From Chrysomallon squamiferum (Eukaryota > Animalia > Mollusca): a stretch of DNA of 64,000 nucleotides. The stretch is from the NCBI GenBank assembly GCA_012295275.1, contig CM022665.1, forward strand, positions 28,644,001 to 28,708,000. The letters run 5' to 3'. The position numbers and the translations under genes are program-made. How positions within the stretch are numbered: the stretch's first letter is position 1; the number at the start of each line of letters is the position of its first letter. Below the pieces are notes generated by a model, which was not told the DNA's origin, ran no database searches, and was given only the letters and a program-made list of their open reading frames with translations. Positions 418-63,059 of the stretch are shown piece by piece.

Positions 418-1751
418 TGCCATCATTTGGAGTGAATATAGACATGCAGGAAATATCAGTAAGTGATACTTCAGTGTCTGTTTCTTGGACTCCGTTGCCG
501 CAAAGTGTTGTCAGTGAAATATCAGCCATGCAGCTTACATACAGTGACGGCAGTGACAGAAATGAACACAGCAAGAAAGTGGAGCCGAGTAGTAGCAAAT
601 TCGTTCTGGATGGGCTGGACCCAGGGACAAATTATGCTGCACGAGTTGAAGTATTATTCAAAAATGGGACAGTAGCTAGGTCTAGCACGATACACTTTGT
701 CACTGGTACAAATACTGGAGGTAATTATTTAAAATAAATAAATAAATGCAGAAAGAAATGTTATTAATTTTTGTTAACATATATATAGGCTTCCATCGAA
801 AAGTAATGTTTACAAAAATGGTTTTTTCAACGTTTTGTAGCGCTGTTGTAAAACCTAAGTTGTTTGTTTGTTGTTGTTTGTTGTTGTTTTGTTTTATTTT
901 TTTTTTTCTTCTTGTGACGGGGGTATGGGTTGGTAGTTAAACATAAAATTAAAATCCATATTGATGAAATTCATTAATTAACATTTCACGTATAGATCAG
1001 TAAAGCATAATATAAATAAACCAAACAATATTCTTAAAACTGGCGGCAACAAATAAGTTACTTAATTAATGATTAATTTATGTGGTCAAAATTAAAGAGA
1101 ACCGTTGGTTTTTAAGTCCATATTCGTTCATTTATTTAATCCGATGCCTTTAACATAATACGTTAAACATTTTGTTTTTGCATTGTATATGCACTTTCAT
1201 ATTAATAATTTGATTTCGTAATAATTATATTTAATTTTTCTCAGTTATGACATTTAAGCCAAAATCATCCGAATTTTGACTAATCATAAAGTAATATTAT
1301 TAATCAATATACTTTAAGTTCATGTAATCAAATGATTTGTTTACCAAAAAGAACTGTTTATTGAGGTGATGCCTTAATCATTTCAGACACGCCCCAGAGT
1401 GTCCTGATACCACTGGTCGTTTCGGCTGTGATTGTCGTCTGCGCGATCGCTATTGTAGCAGTCACGTGTTGCCTCTGGAGACGAGCAAAGCTCGGGCAGT
1501 CTCGTGACAATTCGTTTGAAAACAAAACATTTGGGGTGAGTATTTGTCATTTAGCAGAAAATCTTTACAAAACAGGCCAATATTATTGGCATATCCTCAT
1601 GGTAAAACATATATGACCGTTTTTATGGATTTATTATCGCGCATTTCCACACCCCCATCTATCTTATTCAATAAATGAACTACATTTGAATAAATACTGA
1701 TTTATTAGATGAGATTGTTTTTTCTTTTTAATTTTAATAAATTTTTATTCG

Positions 1752-21554: not shown

Positions 21555-24500
21555 ATGCCTGTTAAAATTTTTATTGGAAACCTGTCTGATGACACACAGG
21601 TTTCTCAACTTCAACCACTGTTTGACAAGTATGGAACTGTAACAGAGTGTGATGTGCTTAGAAATTTTGGATTTGTGGTAATGCATATTTACATTCATTA
21701 TTATTTGAACAGAATAACTCAGTATGGCAATATATAATATTCAGAATCTTTTTCCTGGTCATTTTGTGTATGTGTTGTGAGTATATGTATGTGTAAAGAT
21801 GTATATACAGGGATTTACTTGAATTTGCTAAAATGTTAATGAATACTTGAGTCAGTAAAGAAAACAAATGACAGTGACAACACATATTTTAATTAGCTTC
21901 ACCATTCACTGTGTGTAAACTTACCCATGTCAGGATCATTTATAACATCCCTCCAAAAACAGTTCTCAGTTAATCCTTTAGAAACTTGATCAGTGTTGGG
22001 AAATGGGCAATAATTGTTGTAATTTTTTTTAAATGGGTATTTAATTTTATTATAATAAAACAAATATTTTAAGCAAGTTGTGCTTCCAGTTGTGTAAGAC
22101 ACTCAAAATTCTACTCATCATTGTAAATGTCCCAGTTGTAACTTATTATTTTAAATCAGATTTTTAAAATGTATAATGAAAGAATTTATTATTATTTATT
22201 ATAATATTTTTTTTTATTTTTTATTTTTTTTTACAGCTATTAATATTTAAAATTATGAAAACCATTTCCATCTACATGTGTTAATAATGACTGTTATCAC
22301 TGAACACAGCAGGAAATATGAATGAGTGAATGTAAGATATTAGTGAGCTAGAATGTTGCAGTCAGCAGGCTATTATTAATTTTATATAAAAAAAATGTAT
22401 TGTTTCCATACAGCACATGCAGTCAGATGAAGAAGCTGATGAAGCCATAAAAAACCTGAATGGATATCATTTGAATGGACAGAAGATCAGAGTTGAGGTA
22501 TATAATAAATATTATTACTGTTGAAACATTTCAACAACATGCTATTTGGATTTATTAAACACCGAGTTCCGCCTCAGTTTTGTGCGAACCGTTGTGAAAT
22601 CTGCATTTGCACATTACCTATGTTTGCGTTTTTTTTTTTATTGTAATCGACACTGACTTAATGTTTATGTTGTATATTATTTGCGTTCCTAATTTTTTTT
22701 ACTTTCCGTAAGATTATAATGTGTCACTATTGTCTTAACGAATCCGATGTTTTATTTTGAGTGTGATAGCTCTATTCCAGTTTAAATTATATTAAAAGAA
22801 ATTCATTTATATTTATTTGCTTGCTAACATGCGTTTAACCCTGCAGCTAACAACTTTTAAATTCCGATTATGGTTCTCAGACTTGGATTGATATGTTTCG
22901 TTTTACTCGAGATTATTTTATTTAGTAGCAATCAGTGAAATAACGAGCAAACAGTTATTTTATATGAAAAGATTTAATTCGTTTTGTACATTACTAAAAA
23001 CAAACCGTTTTTATTACATATGTATGCAGTTCAAACGTTTTCTTTTTACGTGCGATCTACTAAAGGTATCCTCAGTAATGAATTGCTTACTTTACGTGTT
23101 CTTATACTCTGCAGAAATCGACAGGAAAATCGAGAGAAGATGGATTTAGAGGGGGAAGAGGGTAGGTTAAAATGCAGATGTAAACATCTCATTTTCTCAC
23201 TTTTTCCAAAATAAAAATTCTTAAATCATTTCACTGCCGCATAACCCCCCAAAGAACTGGACAATTTTAAGAATGGATTCCGAAATCTTTGCAGATAGAA
23301 GATGCCGAATTCGTTTGGTCTGTTCAAGTATGTTTTATGTACAGGTAACATGGCCCCAAATGTTCAGTCAGTTGGAAAATCCTTATTTAAAAGAAATAGG
23401 TAAAACAACACCGATAAATATGCTTGTTTTATACAACATATCTACAAATGTTCATTCGTAGTCAACAAAGCCGTTTATGCGTTTGTCACATAATGTGGTC
23501 TCAGCCATTTTATTTGGTAATGTATAAGAACTTTACTACATTTACTAAACTCGTTAGCTGACATTAAAAATTGTAATGAGAATCCTGTGTGTGTTTATTA
23601 CCTTACATATTTTATGTACAAAATCATATAAATATAAAAATAAACTGATTTCGAACTTTGAAAAAAAAGGTTGCATTGGTGACATATTCATTACAGAAGT
23701 AAATGACAAAGGTACACTTAATCCATTTTTTTTTTTTTTTTCATTTTGAAATCAAAAATTATTTGTATAAAAACTGGAAACAGTGAAGTATTGTTATCCT
23801 AAATTTTTTATTTTTTTTTAAATTCATTATCAGACATAACGATATTTCATATAAGGACATGGAAATCTTTGTTTTAGTGGACGAAGTAGAGGTGGAGGAG
23901 CAATGAGGGCAATGCGAGGTGCAAGAGGTGGAAGGGGTGGTTATCCAGCTCCATATGAGAGATTTCCACCACCCCCACCAGCATATGATAGATATGATGC
24001 ATACTACAGGTATTCTTCACCTAGTTATTATAACATTTATTATAGTGAAAACAGATTCTTATTAGACTGATCATTCTGAACTATAATTTGTTATATGTGG
24101 ATCTATGTTTCTATTGAAAACACGAGATATTTTTGTTTTATATTATTTATTATTGACAAAAAGAACATACATATAATTCAGAAATATTTAATTTTTCTTT
24201 CTATCAGAGATTATTATGAGAGAGAACCTTATTATCCTTCAAGAGGTGACCGCTACCCTGCCAGACTCCCTCCCCCACTTCCCCCAGGAGATCGGTACGC
24301 TAGGGAGCGACCTCTACCACCACCCCCTGAAAGGAGACCTGTATATGCTGATCCAAGGGACAGGCTGCCACCACCACCCAGAGATAGATATGCACCTTAT
24401 CCTGAAGACAGACATCTTCCTTTACCTTACGAAAGAGATTATGAAAGAGCAAGACCACTTGAGAGGGGACTGCCTGCTGATCCCTACTACAGAGAACGGA

Positions 24501-24956
24501 GCCCGTTAGGCCGACCACCCCCTGAATATTATGAACGATTGTAATTATTTTTATTTAATACAGATAATTTCTCAGAATTGATAAATATTTAATCATATAG
24601 TCATTCCATAATTTAATTGACATATGAAGAATGCACATGTCTATCATAACAGATCAGATGCATGAATTATGAAACAGAATAAATTTCCATGTTATTTTTA
24701 TTATTGTTTTTCAATTATTTGTTTTCATCTTGACAACAGGAAGTCTGACTATCCAGGAATGTCAGTTCGAGAAGGTCCTAGAGAAAGCAACGGTTATGAT
24801 TATTACAGACATCATGCTCCACGAGACCCTTATGATAGGACATACGGAGGAACAGCTGTTGTGCCTGGTCCAAGACAGAGCAATCAGCCATCAGCCACTG
24901 CAGCACATAAATTTGACAGTCAGGCAAAGTTGCAAACTGGGCCCATCTTCTTTTAA
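21555..24956 (+). CDS. RBM4: RBM4/lark-like RNA-binding protein: one RRM, an RGG box and a Pro/Arg/Tyr/Asp-rich tail
   Basis: Coding exons 21555-21677, 22414-22497, 23115-23161, 23878-24009, 24208-24540, 24740-24956, all GT-AG and in frame. [49 protein letters not shown] is the RBM4/lark RRM1 signature. Orthology versus paralogy is not resolved. Confidence 0.85.
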
Positions 24957-26893: not shown

Positions 26894-28283
26894 TTTTTAT
26901 TTATTTATTTCTTCGCAAAGGTTAAAGTACTATCGAAAGAACCCAAAGATAAAACTGTCGCGAACGTTACATCTGAATTAATGAATGTCCGAGAATCGAC
27001 TTCTGCTAAAACAATAACGAATATCTCGAACGGTATTATGATTGTTAATAAATTTATTGAGACGTATCTTATTTATAAAAGATCGTTAATACCAACATGT
27101 TGAGACCAGTTGAGTCACGATCAGTTTTATTTATTATTTCTTAATTATTTTAACTTTGCCATTAAGGTTTAACAAGCTGCACGAATGATAACATCGTTTT
27201 TCTTTTCGTAATAATAATTATTTATTATATTATTTTATTTTATTAATACTAAAATCTTTTGTCTTTTATTCCAATTTGAAATGGCACATCAAATACACAC
27301 TTACATTCGTTTTCAGTGTAATCAATTTCTCGCGCTAAACGAGAATTATCGAGATAAAACCTTTGGGAACCAGTCAATCATTGCGAACCAGTGCTTTCTC
27401 TTTTATAATAATGTGAAACTATTACAGACTGTCAATTGTAAGGATTATTATCTTTAAAGGCCGAGAATTTTTATTTTTTATTAACATATTATTTTGTAAT
27501 GCAATAGGTACTTATGAAGTCGGTTGGTTAGACAGCATAATAAATAATTTTTTTGTTGTAAATGTTTTTCGTTGCTCGGTGAATCAAGGCTTCTGTTCCA
27601 CTGTTCGGTGTTCCAGTGTTAGTTTAAAACAATATTAGTATTATTATTACTTTATTAACTACCGATTGATCGTCATTATATATATGGTAGAAGCAGAACA
27701 TTTTAAACTAAAGAATTTATTAAACACATTTTTACTAATTTTGTTAAGGGTTCTGGATGCACACAAAATTGATCAACGAACACTGACAATAGTATTATTG
27801 CTAACTTAGTAACCATAAATTATTGTATATTTGATTAACCATTTACTGACTGCAAATCTTACTAAATAACATTCTTTTTAATAAGATGGTTTTAAAAGTA
27901 ATTAATGTTCCGATTAGATGCCTGAAATTAGCCATGACAAAACCATTTTATTCTCATTAATTATCATGGTATTTCATTTAAGAACAAAACTTTTAAACGA
28001 TTTCAAAGTATCCCTTCTGCTAAATATAGCAGCATGTTATGTAATGTCTTTATCTAATCCCCACTTTGGATCAAACACTAACACATATGTTTTTAGTTTT
28101 TAATGAGAACAGCATTGTAGTCTTCACAGGAGTGGAACAGGTCATGATGTTATCAAATTGAGTTTAATTTAATTTTTTTACTTTATATCTATCAGATACC
28201 ACTGCAGCTGAACCAATGGAAAAATTATTTCATCTCTTATATATCAACTGTTGCCTTTGGGCTTCAAAGTTAACAAGTTACCA

Positions 28284-31200
28284 ATGAAAAACTGGCCTTT
28301 TAGAGTTTTAAAAATGTGGATTAACAGACGGAAAAAGACTATTTTTTCAGCTTTTATTCTGGGTGGAATAATATACATGGTTGTGCAAGTGACATTCTTC
28401 CAACAAGCCTACAGCCCTTTGAGGGTGTTACCCAATGCTGAAAGTGAGGCAAGAAGATTGCTTAAATTTATAACATTGTACCACTACCAGTGTAATAATT
28501 CCATAAGTGGGGGTAACGGAACTTCATGGAAGCTTTGTACAGATGCTGATATTGGAATTAATTTAGATTCTAATGTACCAAAGATAGCTTATTCCATTGG
28601 GTAAAAAAACAAATTATTATTATTATTTTTTTTTTTTTTTTTAAATTAAATTTATATTAAACTATATCTGTTAAATTAGACTGTATAAAATTGAAATACT
28701 AATGCAAAGGTGTTTTAATTAATTTAGAAAAGATAAAGGTGTATTATATTAAAGATATTTTACTATCTTTGAAGAAGTAATATTCTTTGACTATTAAAAC
28801 TCTGCTAAATAAATATATATTTAAGTATAACTTATTATTTTGATCTTGTAGTAGTTCTTCTTGATCTTCTTTTTTTTTTTAATGTTTTTGTTGCATTGTT
28901 ATTGTTGTGCATGTGGCAGGGTATTTTATTTTATTTTTTTAAATATTTTATTTCAGCCCTCTCTGGGATTATGGCTTTGAACAGATGCTTGCTAGAAATC
29001 TTTCTTTTCACACATACATATTTGTACATTACTCTATTCCCCAAGCATTGCGAGCAGTCAATACATCACACATCTTTAAAACTATCATTGTGCCAAATGA
29101 CCCTGCAGATTTTGGAAGGAATTCATTTGAGACACAGACTTTAAACAATGTCATAGAAAAGCTCAATCATCACCATATAGACCTGCTCAAATTGGAATCT
29201 CTTCTGGATTTGAGCAATACACATGAATTTATTTTCTATCTTATCAAAGATGGTCTGCTGCATAATGTGAAGCAGCTTCATATTGTTTTTGATATTGGTG
29301 AGTTCAAATTTGTGAATTTCAATATTATCATTCTTACAAGACTTTGTTTTTTATAGCCTTAGTCATTGTATCTGTTATGCATTTAACCACAGTATTAATT
29401 TTATTTATTTATAATAACTGTTTCTTTATGAAATACATCTTGTTTTCCTTTTTGAGAATTCAAAATACACCAAAATGTATTTGTTTCTGATCTTTATGTA
29501 AAAATATTTGTATCATTTTTCATATTCATTGTTTTACAACTTGATGATATGACTTTCAATAGTTTTAATTTTCAAACAAACATTATTTGACCATTTCCTT
29601 TGTAATTTATACATGTGTGTGTTTGAGAGAGAGAGATTGATCTGAAAAAAGATTTCAGCATAAAATAATGTTGAACACAGAAATGTGCATTCATAAATCT
29701 TGTTTTAAAATTAATTTATAAATCTGTAACATTCAGATTTAATTATAATTTATTTTTCTTCTTTTTTTTACTTCGCCATGATAACGTGCAGATAAAATTG
29801 ATGATGATTATTTGTACAAATGGTACAAAACACTGTATCTCTTGTTCCATGAAGCTGGCTTCCGTCTCTACCACACTTCAGCATCTGATCCATTGTGTTT
29901 GCAAGTGACCATGATGGAATCTTGTCATTACTATATGTCCTGGGTTCAAAACCCAGGACCTAGAACATTTATTCTTTATCCTCCAGCTATAGATGGTAAA
30001 TTTCTCTACATCTTTATTTTTATATGAAGATGCCATTTACAGTTCTTCAAATGCAGGAACAAAATTTAGTAAATCTATGTTTTCTTATTTATTCAGTAAT
30101 TTATTTAAAAATATTTGGTCACATTATATCTTATTTTTATTTAACAGAACTATTTTAAAAATGCTTTAAAAACTATTTTACATGAGTTTTAAATATATTT
30201 ATGGCTTTATACATTTGCAGTACTTTATCCATCTGTTGTCAGTGATTTTATAAATGTCTAAACTAATTTATTCATCTGCTCAGTCATAAATTAATTTTAA
30301 AATCTATATATAATATGAAAAACTAATCACAACTAAAATATATTATTATACATTACTAATTTGTTGAATTGTATTTTTAAATTGATAAAACATGTAGTCT
30401 TTCTCCTAAATGTAAGCACATTTACATAAAAAAGCACAAAAATGCACATGCACACACACAAACACAGTGACGCACACAGATTAAACAAAACATCAGAAAT
30501 TTATACAAACTAATGTTATTATTTTAGGTTCATATGATCTTGAAGTTAAAAGAATGCTAGAGTTTCTAGAAGAACAAGAACCAGTTTGTCATAATAACGT
30601 AGAAGTTGCTGTCACAGTAAATAATATGTTCCATCTTTGTGCTGATCTTGTCATTTCAAAGAAAAAATCAAAATCGAGGTGTAACATTCTGGTGCTTGGG
30701 TGTGTGCAAAACATTTTTTCTTCTTTCTTTTTGATTCAGTAATTTGTTTTTTCTCTATTTTTAATTTAGTAGTACATATTTTCCTTACTTTTAATTTACT
30801 AATTCATTATTTTCTTCTTTTTAATTTAATAATTCATTGTTTTCTTCAGAAATATTGTTGAGGAAATATATTTATTGAACATTAATTGATATTTCACTGG
30901 CATGTTACAACTACTTTATAATTTATATTTTTTTCTTCTTGAACAGAGAAAAAACGGCATCCTCAGTTGTAGATTTTAGCCATCTGAAGTGTAATTTGAA
31001 AATGTTTACATTGAACAGAAAAGGAAATACCATCCAAGCATTAATAAATCAGTGAGAGATTGATTTAATTAATTTCATTAATTTAAAGAAAGTTATTATT
31101 TAACTCAAATGATTTTTAAATGCCTTTTATAAATTATAGAATAAGATTGTTTATAGGTGAATAAATGTATAAATGATTATTTGTTTAAAACCTTGAGTTT

Positions 31201-35100: not shown

Positions 35101-37836
35101 CATTTCAAAGTCATTAGATATTTTAAACATGTTATGTGCACAAATGTCAAATTGGCAAGCAGCTGTTTGTGTATTGATTTGTGGATAATACCCAGAAACT
35201 GAAAATACTAAATTGTGTTGAACTAAGCAATGTATCTTTCTCTCTCTTTTACACACCCACACCCACACACATACACAAAATGTGCAAACAGCAAGCTTAT
35301 TGTTTTCTGTAAATAAACCATATCATCCCACAAAATTTACCTCGATATATTTTCACCATGTCTCAAATTATTATTAAAATCCCACTGTATTTTTCAGCCT
35401 AAGACTCACAGAACTTTAACAAATATAACAGAATCTACTTGTCATTTGTAGTTCAACCTGAAGTACTCTTTATGCCCACTTTGTTTACATGCAACCACAT
35501 ATAAATATTTAAAATCAAACATAAATTGTGTTCTTGTACATGTATAATCCCTCTAATTTGTAAAAATAAACACTTTCTTGCTTTATCTTAAATAAACCCC
35601 ATTGCTTTCTGTCCTAAAACCATGCTTACATTTTTTCTTTTATGTACAACCTATAACCACAACTGATACATCATTTAAAATTTCACTTCAAGCCTGGCAA
35701 TATGATTAAGAATTATAATTACTTGTACATAAAAATAACTGATTCTGTTCTAACTGATCTGCTTTAAAAATTGTTTACTGGTACGAACAGTTGTATTATT
35801 ATTTTTCTGATCCTGACAGAAATGACTGTTGTGTGTGTGTTAGATCAATGATACATGTAAATCTGCAGCAGCTGTCAATGCCATTGATTCATCTGAAACA
35901 GATGTTATGTTTGGAAAATAATGAACTATGTCTATAAATAAATTCTTGAACATCGGTATCATTAAATCAATTTTTTTTTAAAATTTATTCTGATGCAAAA
36001 ATGTAAGTTAAGTTATATTGCTACATTTTCTGTTCAAATAAAAAAAACAAAAAATTGATGATAAACAAACAAAAAAAGAAACAACCAACAAACCAATATG
36101 GTTTCCCATCTTCTAATCTGCCTTTTTTTAAATTTTTTACATTATAATTATTATCTTTTAATTCTTACAAGAAGTTGTTATAATAAAAAAAACAAAAAAA
36201 AACAATCTAATCCTTGGAATTTGCTTTTTGAAGTGGAGGGGGCAGTGATAATTTCATATTTGAAATACAAATGAAATTAATTGTAAATAGTAGTTTTATT
36301 ATTATTATATTTATTGATTTTCAAATTGTGAACCGGCTTGAGCATACACTACATCTAAAGACAGTAATGAACAACACTAGACAGACAACAAGAAAGGAGA
36401 TTGAAATAAAAAATACTCGGGTAGGGGAGGAGAGTTCAAAGGATTACAACATAAAAGCTGAACACCATCAAATCTGCATAAGATTAGCAGCAACCATGTT
36501 TATAGTTCAGAGAAATGACAATTATAACATTTTACAGAAACATCTACAACAGCAAATACACACTGTAGAGAAACATAATGCATTGATTTGTTGTTATTTT
36601 AACAAAAGTCTCCAGCATTATTGTTTGGACAGTGAAGAAAATAAATTTACCATATGCCAATAATTATGCATAGCTTTAAGAAAGTTACAACCAGACATAA
36701 TCAAGGATTAAAATACATCAATATTTCAAAGGCATGATTTTAGTACAATTAATGAGGTCAAACAACATGCATTATTACATAGACTACAACTAGAACAACA
36801 ATGAAGCAGAATAACACATTTAATTATTAAAATTAAGTTAATTTATTAATTATATTTACCTCACCGAATGAAATTTGATTTTATTACAAACTACTTTAAA
36901 AGTAATAATTAATAAGACAAATAATTTTTCTTAAAGTTAGGTGAGAATGTGTATGAAACTTTTTTTATTTTCTTCAGCAAAACATATTTTTAACAGAAAC
37001 AGAAACAGAAAAACTGAAGAAATGACAAAATGAAAAACCAAGTTTTCACATAATACAAAAGTAAAAAAAAGAAGAGAAAAATAACCAATGTGCAATAACA
37101 GTAAACAAAACTGATATATGGTGATTAATATAAACAAAACATGAAAGCCCTCAAATAATAATACAAAAAAGCAGTAGAGAATGAATAATGTTAAAAAAAA
37201 TTAAAAATTCAAGTATTTTTAACTACGTACAAAACCTTAAGTGTGGATATATTTGAACATATACATATCCGATTTCATGAAGTGTACTTGGTTATTCAAA
37301 TAAAGCATTAATCACCTCATATTAACATTCATATGAATTTAAAATGAAAATATTTGAAAATAAAATGAACCATACATTAAACTATATACAAAATCTAAAT
37401 ATGTAAAAAAAAAAAAAAAAAAAAACTAATGTGAAAATTTAGACTGATGAATAAAAAAAAAAAAAAAAATAATAATTGCCTTCAGGTTTAATTTGTAGCA
37501 AACTTCAATCATAGAACTGATGAAGTGTAATAGTTAAGGCCAGACCTCTATCTTCACCAAAAAACTTAAAATCATGACAAGTTCTAGCTTTTGGACAGGA
37601 AAAACCATTTACTACATTTCACAAAGCTTCACTAAAGAAATGAACTAACAGTTGTAAATGTCTCAAAAAGAGGAAAAGCAATTTTTATATAACTTGGTGA
37701 CCTTTAATTTAAAAAAAATAATAAAATAATAGAAAAGGATAGACCAATAACAAATGAAAATGTATATATATGATATGATATTGGCACAAAAGAGAAAACA
37801 AGTCAATCATTTTTGTATCAGTTAAAAAAAATAAAA

Positions 37837-39613: not shown

Positions 39614-59514
<19,901 letters not shown>

Positions 59515-59993
59515 ATTCTTTCCTTTCCGCCATATTTTGAAACGAGCACCTATCTTCAGTTATTTGATAGTATTTCCTAATTCATACCTAAAATAAATTT
59601 TCTATAATTTCCGAAGAATAACTATATTATCGAAACAAAATTAATATTTTTGGAAAGACCACTTAACTAAATTATTTGCTTCTACTACTGTTAATATAAT
59701 TAGTCCAATCCACTAAAATCACTATAAAAATTGTAAAGAACAAGAGTAGTTAACACACGTATATTATCATAAATCACTAATTTATTTTTCGGCAAATAGG
59801 GGTTTTCCCACAGTTTGTTCTAAATCTGTCTCTAACGTCACGCAGGGAATCCTCTTTAAACACCGTTTCATTGGTACGGTCAAAATGAATATTTACAATG
59901 ACCTTCCTTAAAGGTTGGCATTATCGGGGACACTGAAAGCATGCACATTGCGCCTGGCGTTAGGGCGTGTCAGTGGTACAACTAATTCTCCCG
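59515..59993. promoter_or_regulatory. Bidirectional promoter between spastin and the SOCS-box pseudokinase
   Basis: Start codons diverge ~480 bp apart. YY1-like CCGCCATATTTT (~59527-59538), CRE-like AACGTCAC (~59834), reverse CCAAT (attgg, ~59870) and local CpG enrichment. Confidence 0.6.
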
Positions 59994-61043
59994 ATGGCTG
60001 AACAACTAATAGAAGAAACACAAAGATCTAAATCTACCTTAGTTATAAGTCTACAAGATCAGTGTCGAAAAACTATTTTAAAATGTGTGACATTATCGCG
60101 GATCCAAGAAGTTTTAGATCTTCCTTTGCCTGCGGTAATTCAGGATTTTTTGATGAGTTTTAGCATTCCAGAAGACTTTGATTTAACTGGTATGTATGTG
60201 GATTACAATTTTAATTTTCCATACCATTTACACCACAGGACACATCAGATTCACCCTGGCGTGTTTTTATTAGACGGTACAAATGTGTTGATAAAATCTT
60301 ACAGTGATCTGCCTTGCAATATGTGTGGAAACGAAGGAAGTAAAGGAGATGACAAGAAAACGCGGGAAATTTGGCGTACGGTAAAACATGATAATCTACA
60401 GAATTGTTTGTTAACAATCCGAGATCCTAACAAAAACTTCGAATGCACTGTGTTTGAATTTCCAGTAATGAACTTACAAGACTATGCATACAACGTTTAT
60501 TTAGCAGGAAATCACGTGCCGGAGTATTTAGTGTGGGAAATCCTGTTGAAGTTAACAACAGTGTTGCTATATTTAGACGCTAAGAATGTTGAACCGTGGG
60601 ATCTCTGCAAACCAGAAAATATTGTTATTGACGAGCGGGGACAAATAAAGATAGAAAACTTGTTGCTGTATTATCCAGCTAAAAAGCCTTTCAGACCTCT
60701 GGATAATGTCGCATTCTCGAAAATGTACCAAGCTCCTGAATTAGCATTTACAAACAATGTGACAGACAAAACTGCTGTTTGGGGCATTGGGAGTATTTTG
60801 CTAGAGCTAGTATTGCCTGTCCCCATTGTTCTGCTGAAAAACCGCGGGAGTTTTCATTTCCCGCCACTTCTGCCATACGGGAGCTATTATTCATCTCGGC
60901 TACATAGCGTGATCCTTTCCAGTATGAAAAGCCAGCCCCATTTACGACCATGTTTAAGAAGTCTTCAGACGCTGGCGAAACAGGAAATAAAACAACTTAA
61001 TGATATTTACACCGGTCCACGTAACTTGCTGCAGTTCATTTAA
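59994..61043 (+). CDS. Intronless N-terminal SOCS-box + NEK-like pseudokinase protein (~349 aa)
   Basis: Uninterrupted ORF from ATG 59994 (ccgATGg). BC box ISLQDQCRKTIL and Cul5 box LPLPAVIQDFL, then kinase-fold motifs VLIK, KHDNL, VFEF, PWDLCKPENI, IKIENL, YQAPEL, TAVWGIGSILLEL, YSSRL..HLRP. Confidence 0.85.
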   Translation: MAEQLIEETQRSKSTLVISLQDQCRKTILKCVTLSRIQEVLDLPLPAVIQDFLMSFSIPEDFDLTGMYVDYNFNFPYHLHHRTHQIHPGVFLLDGTNVLIKSYSDLPCNMCGNEGSKGDDKKTREIWRTVKHDNLQNCLLTIRDPNKNFECTVFEFPVMNLQDYAYNVYLAGNHVPEYLVWEILLKLTTVLLYLDAKNVEPWDLCKPENIVIDERGQIKIENLLLYYPAKKPFRPLDNVAFSKMYQAPELAFTNNVTDKTAVWGIGSILLELVLPVPIVLLKNRGSFHFPPLLPYGSYYSSRLHSVILSSMKSQPHLRPCLRSLQTLAKQEIKQLNDIYTGPRNLLQFI

Positions 61044-63059
61044 AAACTACTATGACGAATACTTTACAACAATGTTATACAAAGAGACCACCCTGTAGTT
61101 GTTTGTCAAAGGCGAGCGGAAAGGTATTAAGAGCTGACTCGGAAATTTCACGTTCGAAGTTTCTTGTATCTATATTGATCATTACTCTTACAGTGCCTTA
61201 TAATATTATTAGTATTTAGGTAATATTTACCGTTTAATATTGTTTGTATTTAGGTAATATTTACCGTTTTTATTAATGGGAATTAGAAATTTACAAAAAA
61301 AAAAAAAAAAAAAAGCATTCCAAGAAAATTCAAAAACATTGAAACAAGTTCTTAGGAACAGACATTAGGTACAATAATGATTCCAAAATTCAAATCGGGT
61401 TACTTTTAAGTATCGTAATGTGAATTTCATTTTAGTTATTCATTTGTTTTACTTATGTCTTTTTCATTTTTATTATTGTGAATCATTGTGCCTTAAAACA
61501 AAATATATATAATAATAATAATAATAATAATTTACGGAGTGCCTCAAAATAAATCAACAAATTGTGTTACAAATTTAAACAATCAAAACACTTTTTAAAG
61601 TGATTTTTTTTTTTATTGTTACACATTTGTAGTTAAGATAATTTTTTAAGAAATGATTTGCAATATACATGATCCTATATTCAAAATGTGTAGGTGAAAT
61701 TTTATATACATTTGTTATATCCTCTACGTAATTTCATGTTAGTGTTAACCTCTGCCATGTATGTCTTTTATGTTCATTACAATTAGCGCCGTCGACGTTA
61801 GGCCCAAACCTTTGTGTGTATGTCAAGGTATTATTACCTTATCAAGCAGTCAATACATAGGTTTCCATGGTGATGAAATGTCTTAGTGCAGGCAACTGCA
61901 TTAGATACAACATACCTGTGGACATTTTGAAATTAGTTCGATACACAGAAACGACTGAGGGTCTTTGTGTATTGAATTTACAATATATTACTTTGTTTTT
62001 GATATTTGATATATATTTTATACTGTAAAATATAGGTAACTGTAGTTGTAACCTATTACTAAAAAATGCATTCACGTGTGCCTTTTCTCTGTATATAATT
62101 AATGCATAATATTGCAGGTTTATTATGGATATTTTTAATGAAGAAATGTAAATTATATAGAATACTTTACAAATATTACAATCTGGTATAAAGTCAGAGA
62201 ATTTTTAGAATGGTTTTATCTTAAAACGTCGAATCGCCAAAAACATATAGTTTTGTAAAAAGATAGGGGGATGTGTATAAACCGTCCATTATTTTAAAAA
62301 TACTGATTGATGTTATTTGATCTCTGATTAAAAACAATTAAAAAAAAAAAAAAAATAAATAAATAAATAAATAAATAAAAAGAGAGGGAAGAAATTAACA
62401 ATAATAATAATAAATCAGATAGGTAACTGATGATTTCAAGAATCGTTGTTATATACCGTTCAAAATAAATTAGGCGAATTTTGAAACCAAGCTGTTGACG
62501 CGTTAACATTATCTCCCGGTAAAGCGAGTTTCCAAAGAGCATCATATGGTTAAAATTTCCGAAGTACACATGGCTGCCAATTAATTGAATGTTTATAAAA
62601 TCTATCATCAGCGAGACGCTGTGTTGTTCTTTTTCCTGCGCTGCATTCACTGTATACTATCCATCGGGTCATACTTTTTTTGTAATTATAAGACAAGATT
62701 TTAATTCAGTTTACAAATTTAGAAGAAAAATTTGTATCTTGTTTTCGGTTTACCTTTTTTTTTTTGAAATATTATTATATGAAATTCTAGATTGTTATGA
62801 TTTATGTAATATAATGCTAGATTTTGATTTATCTTCTTCAGTTTTAGCATTTTGTCCTTATTTACTGACGTGCGTTTCAAACACGTGTATGATTATGAAT
62901 ATTTTATAAACCTAGTTTAAGAGTATTGTTTTACGCTTTCCAAAAACTTTTTTGTAACACTTACCTGGCAGTTTACATTTAATTAATCATTTAATACGAC
63001 GTATTCCGAAAACTGTAATACTTTTCTTTTAATACCATTAAAATGGGTTGAAAAACAAA

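Follow-up and report, generated by a model that had tools for sequence, protein, structure and literature searches.

This locus raises the question of whether a protein kinase that has lost its catalytic motifs may have been turned into the substrate-binding part of a ubiquitin ligase. The window, by which we mean the whole 64-kb stretch of DNA that was analysed, is AT-rich and of eukaryote type (GC content of 24-35% per 2 kb), and one of its ORFs was described in a first-pass annotation as a fusion of a SOCS box with a NEK-like pseudokinase, and as a candidate new type of Cullin-5 (Cul5) receptor. We consider it probable that in this protein a NEK-like pseudokinase serves as a substrate receptor of CRL5 and that it arose independently of NRBP1, the ligase function being read from matched motifs.

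The gene and its transcripts

The ORF (Table 1) is the longest of six stop-to-stop frames of at least 130 aa in the window, and an in-frame stop codon lies directly upstream of it. The stretch is contained in four RNA runs of one study, and in all three of the runs examined it is tiled by RNA-library contigs with no splice joint inside the ORF; both of the homologous DNA loci (L001 and L002) are likewise uninterrupted, which confirms the original description of an intact, single-exon frame. The same libraries contain a spliced contig of the adjacent spastin gene, and mRNA of the organism is therefore present in them. Expression had been named at the outset as a point on which the proposal could fall, and to the extent that these libraries report it, in a single study and at low depth, the ORF is present. 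The depth over it (approximately 3-8) is comparable to that over pieces at 61.7-63.0 kb, and contigs of this kind give neither strand nor level. The RNA runs leave stretches of the spastin introns uncovered (for example 58167-59001) whereas a DNA-like run covers them, although holes in contigs prove nothing.

Table 1. Coordinates of features at the pseudokinase locus, numbered from the first base of the window
Feature	Position	Strand	Evidence
Spastin exon 1, coding part, head-to-head with the pseudokinase ORF	59121-59514	-	PDB spastin match, E 4e-9
Gap between divergent start codons, 479 bp, likely bidirectional promoter	59515-59993		Same arrangement in L001 and L002
SOCS-box/NEK-like pseudokinase ORF, intronless, 349 aa	59994-61043	+	ORF scan, Pfam, RNA contigs, AlphaFold model
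SOCS box, aa 18-54	60045-60155	+	Pfam, 31.4 bits; three helices in model
BC box, aa 19-28 (S19-I28)	60048-60077	+	Fits [TSP]Lxxx[CAS]xxxPhi
Cul5 box, aa 40-53 (V40-L53), LPLP at 43-46	60111-60152	+	Fits PhixxLPPhiPxxPhixxxPhi
Protein-kinase fold, aa 53-336, most like NEK7	60150-61001	+	VIA-align Z 22.1; family profiles rank NEK7 first
His-rich motif H78-H84 at glycine-loop position, candidate zinc ligands	60225-60245	+	His in 88-100% of 16 subfamily sequences
beta3 lysine K101, retained	60294-60296	+	K in 30/39 family members
CxxC (C108, C111), beta3-alphaC loop, candidate zinc ligands	60315-60326	+	Invariant in 16/16 subfamily sequences
Degenerate catalytic loop, aa 201-209, no HRD	60594-60620	+	0/37 proteins with HRD/YRD
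N222-L223-L224 at DFG position	60657-60665	+	Asn at Asp position in 33/39

Some further observations concern the flanks of the ORF. An upstream ORF of 14 codons (59941-59985, + strand), out of frame with the main one, lies inside an RNA contig and ends 8 nt before the main ATG; short upstream ORFs are visible by eye in the corresponding gaps of L001 and L002 too, and the one in the window may limit translation or may be there by chance. On the other side, low-depth RNA contigs occupy 61657-62967, downstream of the ORF, and AATAAA hexamers occur near 61548 and at 62354-62464; these contigs could come from a long 3' UTR, from a further transcript or from carried-over DNA. Elsewhere in the window, a 130-aa open frame (28212-28604, + strand) has a hydrophobic segment and no Pfam match, and we take it to resemble the start of METTL24-type methyltransferases. 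A frame at 1365-1613 (+ strand) contains a transmembrane-like stretch with a weak Cadherin_C_2 match (E 0.006, below cut-off) and is possibly an exon of a membrane receptor; no Pfam match was obtained for the open frames at 24080-24544, 28943-29356 and 36232-36663.

The SOCS box

The N-terminal BC box and Cul5 box (LPLPAVIQDFL) reported at first pass were confirmed. Pfam SOCS_box (PF07525) matches aa 18-54 with E 2.3e-7, its 31.4 bits standing against a cut-off of 23.5, and both boxes match fully the published consensuses as these are quoted in PMC3355856 and PMC13342108. In the AlphaFold2 model of the whole protein, which was built on a 35-sequence alignment (pLDDT 84.6, pTM 0.86), the SOCS region forms helices at aa 20-32, 34-42 and 47-53, with a block pLDDT of 92-94 over aa 21-60, and the kinase fold follows directly after these three helices. 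Folded alone and without an alignment, the SOCS segment gives a poor model (pLDDT 60) for which fold searches are uninformative, and the segment by itself matches solved SOCS boxes weakly (ASB7, E 0.079; SOCS1, E 0.3; SOCS2 also among the best). The proline at the fourth position of LP-Phi-P is said in PMC3355856 to favour Cul5, and P46 is the only column that shows no variation among the 35 aligned sequences.

A kinase fold without catalytic motifs

The presence of a kinase fold was also borne out. Pfam Pkinase matches aa 125-279 (42.1 bits, cut-off 31.7, E 9e-11), so that both of the domains for which an HMM check had been suggested stand above their curated cut-offs; Foldseek with the model returns kinases (E 6.6e-13), and VIA-align of the model with NEK7 (2wqm) gives Z 22.1 and an rmsd of 3.1 over 239 aligned residues, with FGFR, NEK2 and others tied within 1 Z. 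The protein ends approximately 13 aa after the fold.

The catalytic loop carries a one-residue insertion of ambiguous place. In pairwise and narrow-profile alignments D203 falls on the catalytic Asp, whereas in the family alignment and the wide profile L204 stands there and D203 falls on the Arg, the family alignment choosing this register because the Arg position is acidic in members that lack the insertion. There is no HRD in the ORF under either register, and the change from HRD to PWD first described thus holds as a loss of HRD, its register being ambiguous. The DFG position, originally read as ENL, is corrected to N222-L223-L224, and the alphaC Glu position is T123. The Asp-to-Ala change in subdomain IX was recovered as A261 at the alphaF Asp position, and the beta3 Lys (K101), the APE motif (247-249) and the C-lobe Arg (R318) are retained as described; N209, the catalytic-loop Asn, is retained as well. 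Lacking both a glycine loop and an HRD, and with Asn where DFG has its Asp, this kinase fold appears from its sequence to be that of a pseudokinase, in which catalysis is very unlikely.

The glycine loop is absent, as was noted at first pass, but it has not merely been lost: a conserved His-rich motif lies in its place and is followed by a CxxC. Among 16 sequences drawn from the 25-row branch that holds the ORF, near-duplicates and the most divergent rows being left out, H81, H84, C108, C111 and C138 are invariant, and H78 and H80 are conserved in 94% and 88% respectively; the set is absent from the other branches of the 39-member family described below. The glycine loop and the beta3-alphaC loop are neighbours in the kinase N-lobe, and for this reason H78, H80, H81 and H84 together with C108 and C111 are likely to form a zinc site that caps the old ATP cleft. 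Conservation by region over the same 16 sequences is highest in the His loop (0.70) and in the beta7-DFG segment (0.69), and lowest in the activation loop and alphaG (0.34 for each). A complex prediction for a homodimer with zinc, in which the alignment was not used, scored 0.00 with no contacts and is no evidence either way.

A family of SOCS-box pseudokinases

Word-based searches found four and then eight relatives, and when a profile was run against 1.84 billion representatives, 19 matches came in at E 1e-30 or below, with 63 at 1e-10. From these we assembled a set of 39 members, comprising the near-full-length proteins from the best 150 listed matches, the earlier matches and the two DNA loci, and leaving out the fragments P0022, P0025, P0029, P0030, P0037, P0144 and P0149 and also P0152; a further homologue search with a wide alignment returned five proteins and no new names. 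The search for the same architecture that had been suggested therefore revealed a family. Its 39 members form one clade with approximately five deep branches (SH-aLRT 99 in a quick tree of 77 rows), and a nine-member subset is a clade with support of 100/100 in a careful tree of 29 rows. SOCS_box is above the Pfam cut-off in 29 of the 39 and some SOCS match is present in 37, always N-terminal to the kinase. The BC-box pattern is found in 33 members and LP-Phi-P in 28; the 11 that lack LP-Phi-P include the four closest to the Mactra protein (P0010, P0014 and the ORFs of L001 and L002), and cullin choice may thus vary across the family. The intact catalytic motifs of an active NEK were seen in none of the 37 proteins checked for an HRD/YRD or a glycine-loop pattern. 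Asn occupies the position of the DFG Asp in 33 of 39, while the beta3 Lys is kept in 30 and the catalytic-loop Asn in 14, and the alphaC Glu is present in seven of the 13 closest members.

Three of the 18 clusters that were looked up carry names, all of them molluscs. The Haliotis cracherodii member is uncharacterized and is 48% identical to the ORF, that of Mactra antiquata is labelled 'Nek2', and that of Patella caerulea/vulgata, on a distant branch, is labelled 'Nek6'. A search for relatives in viral contigs confirmed none of 91 pattern matches. In the ESM Atlas the whole protein fell among generic kinase clusters only, and for aa 14-135 no match exceeded 0.84. For oyster, the kinome paper (PMC4883820) counts 19 NEKs and, in its available portion, makes no mention of SOCS; an oyster 'Nek6' given there (EKC42150.1) has 26.1% identity to its best kinase match, beside a true NEK6/7 at 71.7%, and is a possible misfiled member of the family. 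We also note that two SOCS-box family-like fragments, P0030 and P0144, cease to resemble the family shortly beyond the catalytic loop, at nearly the same position in both, which suggests an intron or break there, so that some branches may not be intronless. P0152 is another protein with a SOCS box and a kinase fold, has more kinase-like loops, and may represent a separate branch or a separate fusion.

Searched as a single sequence, the kinase part matches CDKs first (E 3.8e-8), with NEK7 at E 8.3e-7. A family profile compared with solved structures gives NEK7 at E 2.5e-48 as against 1.9e-30 for NEK1, and another family profile gives NEK7 at E 9.7e-26 as against 7e-15 for NEK2. In both the 77-row and the 29-row tree the long family stem attaches outside the NEK6/7 rows, and in the best tree the family is not nested within NEK6/7; the family and the NEK6/7-like rows split from other NEKs at only 78/86 in the 29-row tree. 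The AU test does not reject a grouping with animal-type NEK6/7 (p 0.15); it does reject one with three other NEKs (p 0.027). The kinase part is thus likely, as judged by profile comparison, to have descended from a NEK6/7-type kinase, a point that the trees do not settle. The protein resembles NEK6 and NEK7 in that NEK7 is the best profile match of the family among solved structures and the top fold match of the model, in a similar beta2-beta3 hairpin and in its compact kinase with a short tail, whereas it differs in the absence of catalytic motifs from the family, in the SOCS box and, within the branch of the ORF, in the His/Cys motifs. NEK7 binds NLRP3; an analogous NLRP3-binding role was set aside, since the ORF has not retained NEK7's basic alphaD-alphaE segment.

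Selection was checked, as had been proposed with the original annotation. Synonymous sites are saturated between the ORF and the homologous loci (pS 0.79-0.83), which makes a dN/dS ratio not computable, and pS and pN were compared instead. The pN value is 0.43 for the ORF against each of L001 and L002 and 0.19 between those two, the latter being near the 0.185 of spastin exon 1, and the frames are intact at 38-39% identity. The gene is under purifying selection.

Linkage to spastin

The neighbouring spastin gene (40442-59514, - strand) has a first intron of approximately 9.8 kb, a next exon near 49327 and AAA exons at approximately 40.4-44.1 kb; the loose end of the exon-1 RNA contig maps to 49310, and an AAA exon matches spastin at E 2.5e-14. 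Only two homologous DNA loci were found (2 of 332 pattern matches), and both are intronless and head-to-head with spastin exon 1, with start-codon gaps of 341 bp in L001 and 326 bp in L002. The arrangement therefore holds in all three loci for which there is DNA, which count as two lineages and not three, because the L001 and L002 proteins group with the Mactra protein. The gap in the window is likely to be a bidirectional promoter common to both genes, and a common promoter accounts for the linkage with no need for the two genes to be functionally related. Retrocopies are often intronless and near housekeeping-type promoters, and a retrocopy origin of the pseudokinase gene is plausible.

The gap holds the window's only match to a kappaB consensus, and there is one in the L001 gap and none in that of L002; a CSL-type motif overlaps the kappaB-like site (together at 59799-59812), and CSL-type motifs occur in all three gaps (in 2-6% of shuffles each). 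The gaps of the window and L002 have a 13-mer in common, a length reached in eight of 1000 shuffles. Since the consensuses were chosen after the sequence had been inspected, we regard these matches as a lead only. The longest exact word common to all three gaps is 8 nt, no more than chance would give (484 of 1000 shuffles). Within spastin intron 1 there is also a Spin-doc zinc-finger fragment (55719-56000, + strand; PF18658, 29.8 bits, cut-off 27.3), presumably a relic of a SPIN/hAT-type DNA transposon.

Comparison with known receptors

The SOCS-box partners listed in the available text of PMC3355856 are SH2, WD40, SPRY, ankyrin, LRR and GTPase, with no kinase among them. The ORF is like the SOCS/CIS, ASB, SPSB, WSB, Rab40 and LRRC41/MUF1 proteins in having a canonical BC box and Cul5 box, and unlike the known receptors in that its partner is a pseudokinase and its box lies at the N-terminus, immediately ahead of the kinase N-lobe. 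LRRC41/MUF1 also carries its SOCS box N-terminally. NRBP1 is WNK-related; it and NRBP2 share with the ORF a dead kinase fold together with a BC box, which in the case of NRBP1 belongs to an Elongin BC cullin ligase receptor. NRBP1 binds Elongin B/C and, in one study, Cul5 (PMC3365428); it is described as the substrate receptor for BRI2/BRI3, and another paper reports NRBP1 with Cul2/Cul4A (PMC12254500). The BC motif of the NRBPs lies in their C-terminal half (PMC12254500), whereas the SOCS box of the ORF is N-terminal and its fold NEK-like, and the NRBP layout, in which BC box and dimerisation region are C-terminal to the pseudokinase, is not that of the ORF. These two features, a full SOCS box at the front and a NEK-like fold, make an origin independent of NRBP likely for the family, the trees having been built without NRBP sequences.

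The protein ASFV MGF505-1R has an N-terminal SOCS-box-like motif that recruits EloB and Cul5 (PMC13342108), and an adaptor-first SOCS box can therefore work, although this is a viral protein, for which the available text shows no connection with kinase folds. PCMTD1 has a methyltransferase fold without activity that serves CRL5 as a substrate-binding module through its old active site (PMC12590147). It is thus a dead enzyme fold in the CRL5 role that is proposed for the ORF, and differs in that the ORF has a kinase fold and the substrate class of PCMTD1 is known. Given these precedents in NRBP1, PCMTD1 and ASFV MGF505-1R, the description 'new type' was overstated in concept. The accompanying statement, that no characterised protein with an N-terminal SOCS box and a kinase was known to its author, holds for the combination, in that no description of a SOCS-box pseudokinase family was found in the literature searched (most subscription papers lie outside it), but each of the ideas has a precedent. 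What is new is this family and its architecture, which is much larger than one gene.

Proposed function and alternatives

As a CRL5 receptor, the protein would dock Elongin B/C and Cul5-Rbx2 through its SOCS box, with L20 and C24 binding Elongin C and LPLP (43-46) selecting Cul5, in keeping with established SOCS-box biology. Vertebrate Elongin B/C and Cul5 are conserved. The pseudokinase would present a target held at the remodelled former ATP cleft, which would be capped by the likely zinc site and lined by the N222-L224 segment; we favour the cleft as the target surface because its parts are the most conserved and the activation loop and alphaG the least. Our first guess at the substrate, and an unlikely one, is a microtubule or NEK-network protein co-expressed with spastin, a signalling-feedback target being the next.

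The Elongin-binding end of the protein could also be read differently, as that of a non-degradative scaffold or inhibitor bound to Elongin B/C, or of a protein that uses another cullin (Cul2), the SOCS box mostly governing its own stability. The BC box is retained in 33 of the 39 members, whereas the Cul5 motif has drifted in 11. There is overlap between the consensus for a Cul2 box and the Cul5 box (PMC3355856), and a Cul5 box is no guarantee of binding, since SOCS1 binds Cul5 poorly (PMC3355856) and the cullin reports for NRBP1 conflict. However, the ORF and 27 other members keep the full LP-Phi-P, and the ORF fits the complete Cul5-box consensus, so that we judge this alternative decidedly unlikely.

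Less probable still, and in our view very doubtful, is that the kinase fold binds nucleotide or metal as a ligand-gated switch, or is an atypical active kinase, with a SOCS box attached. The fold may still bind nucleotide, since K101 and N209 remain, and the family frequencies of the beta3 Lys, alphaC Glu and catalytic-loop Asn, the high conservation of the cleft-lining motifs and the cofactor that PCMTD1 requires for substrate binding (PMC12590147) all speak for such a role. An active kinase is opposed by the absence of glycine loop and HRD and by Asn for the DFG Asp across the family, and nucleotide binding alone is compatible with a CRL5 receptor. That the ORF is a decaying retro-pseudogene or a chance frame, retained by closeness to the spastin promoter, as its lack of introns, housekeeping-type neighbour and low RNA depth might suggest, is hardly credible and is in effect refuted by the intact frames at saturated synonymous sites, by 39 related proteins in several deep branches and by the same position beside spastin in three loci.

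Returning to the CRL5 receptor, we tentatively put forward a fuller account, somewhat unlikely in its entirety, in which an old, multi-branch and hitherto unrecognised family of invertebrate CRL5 receptors would have arisen from a NEK6/7 copy. In one large branch a zinc clamp of His and Cys residues would have taken the place of the ATP-binding glycine loop, and would itself form the substrate site or act as its gate. The mollusc member, which in lineages of gastropod and bivalve type would have one promoter in common with spastin, would degrade spastin or a microtubule or NEK-network partner. If so, pseudokinases would have been recruited as E3 receptors twice, on independent occasions.

In summary, these findings correct the annotation of family members, which appear in databases under the labels Nek2, Nek6 or 'non-specific serine/threonine kinase' and may inflate the NEK counts of mollusc kinomes. 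To retire an ATP site by means of a His/Cys motif in the glycine-loop position would be unusual. The few domain classes known from SOCS-box receptors would gain a new one, and NRBP1 would be joined by another dead kinase, likely of independent origin, that is coupled to an Elongin BC ligase.
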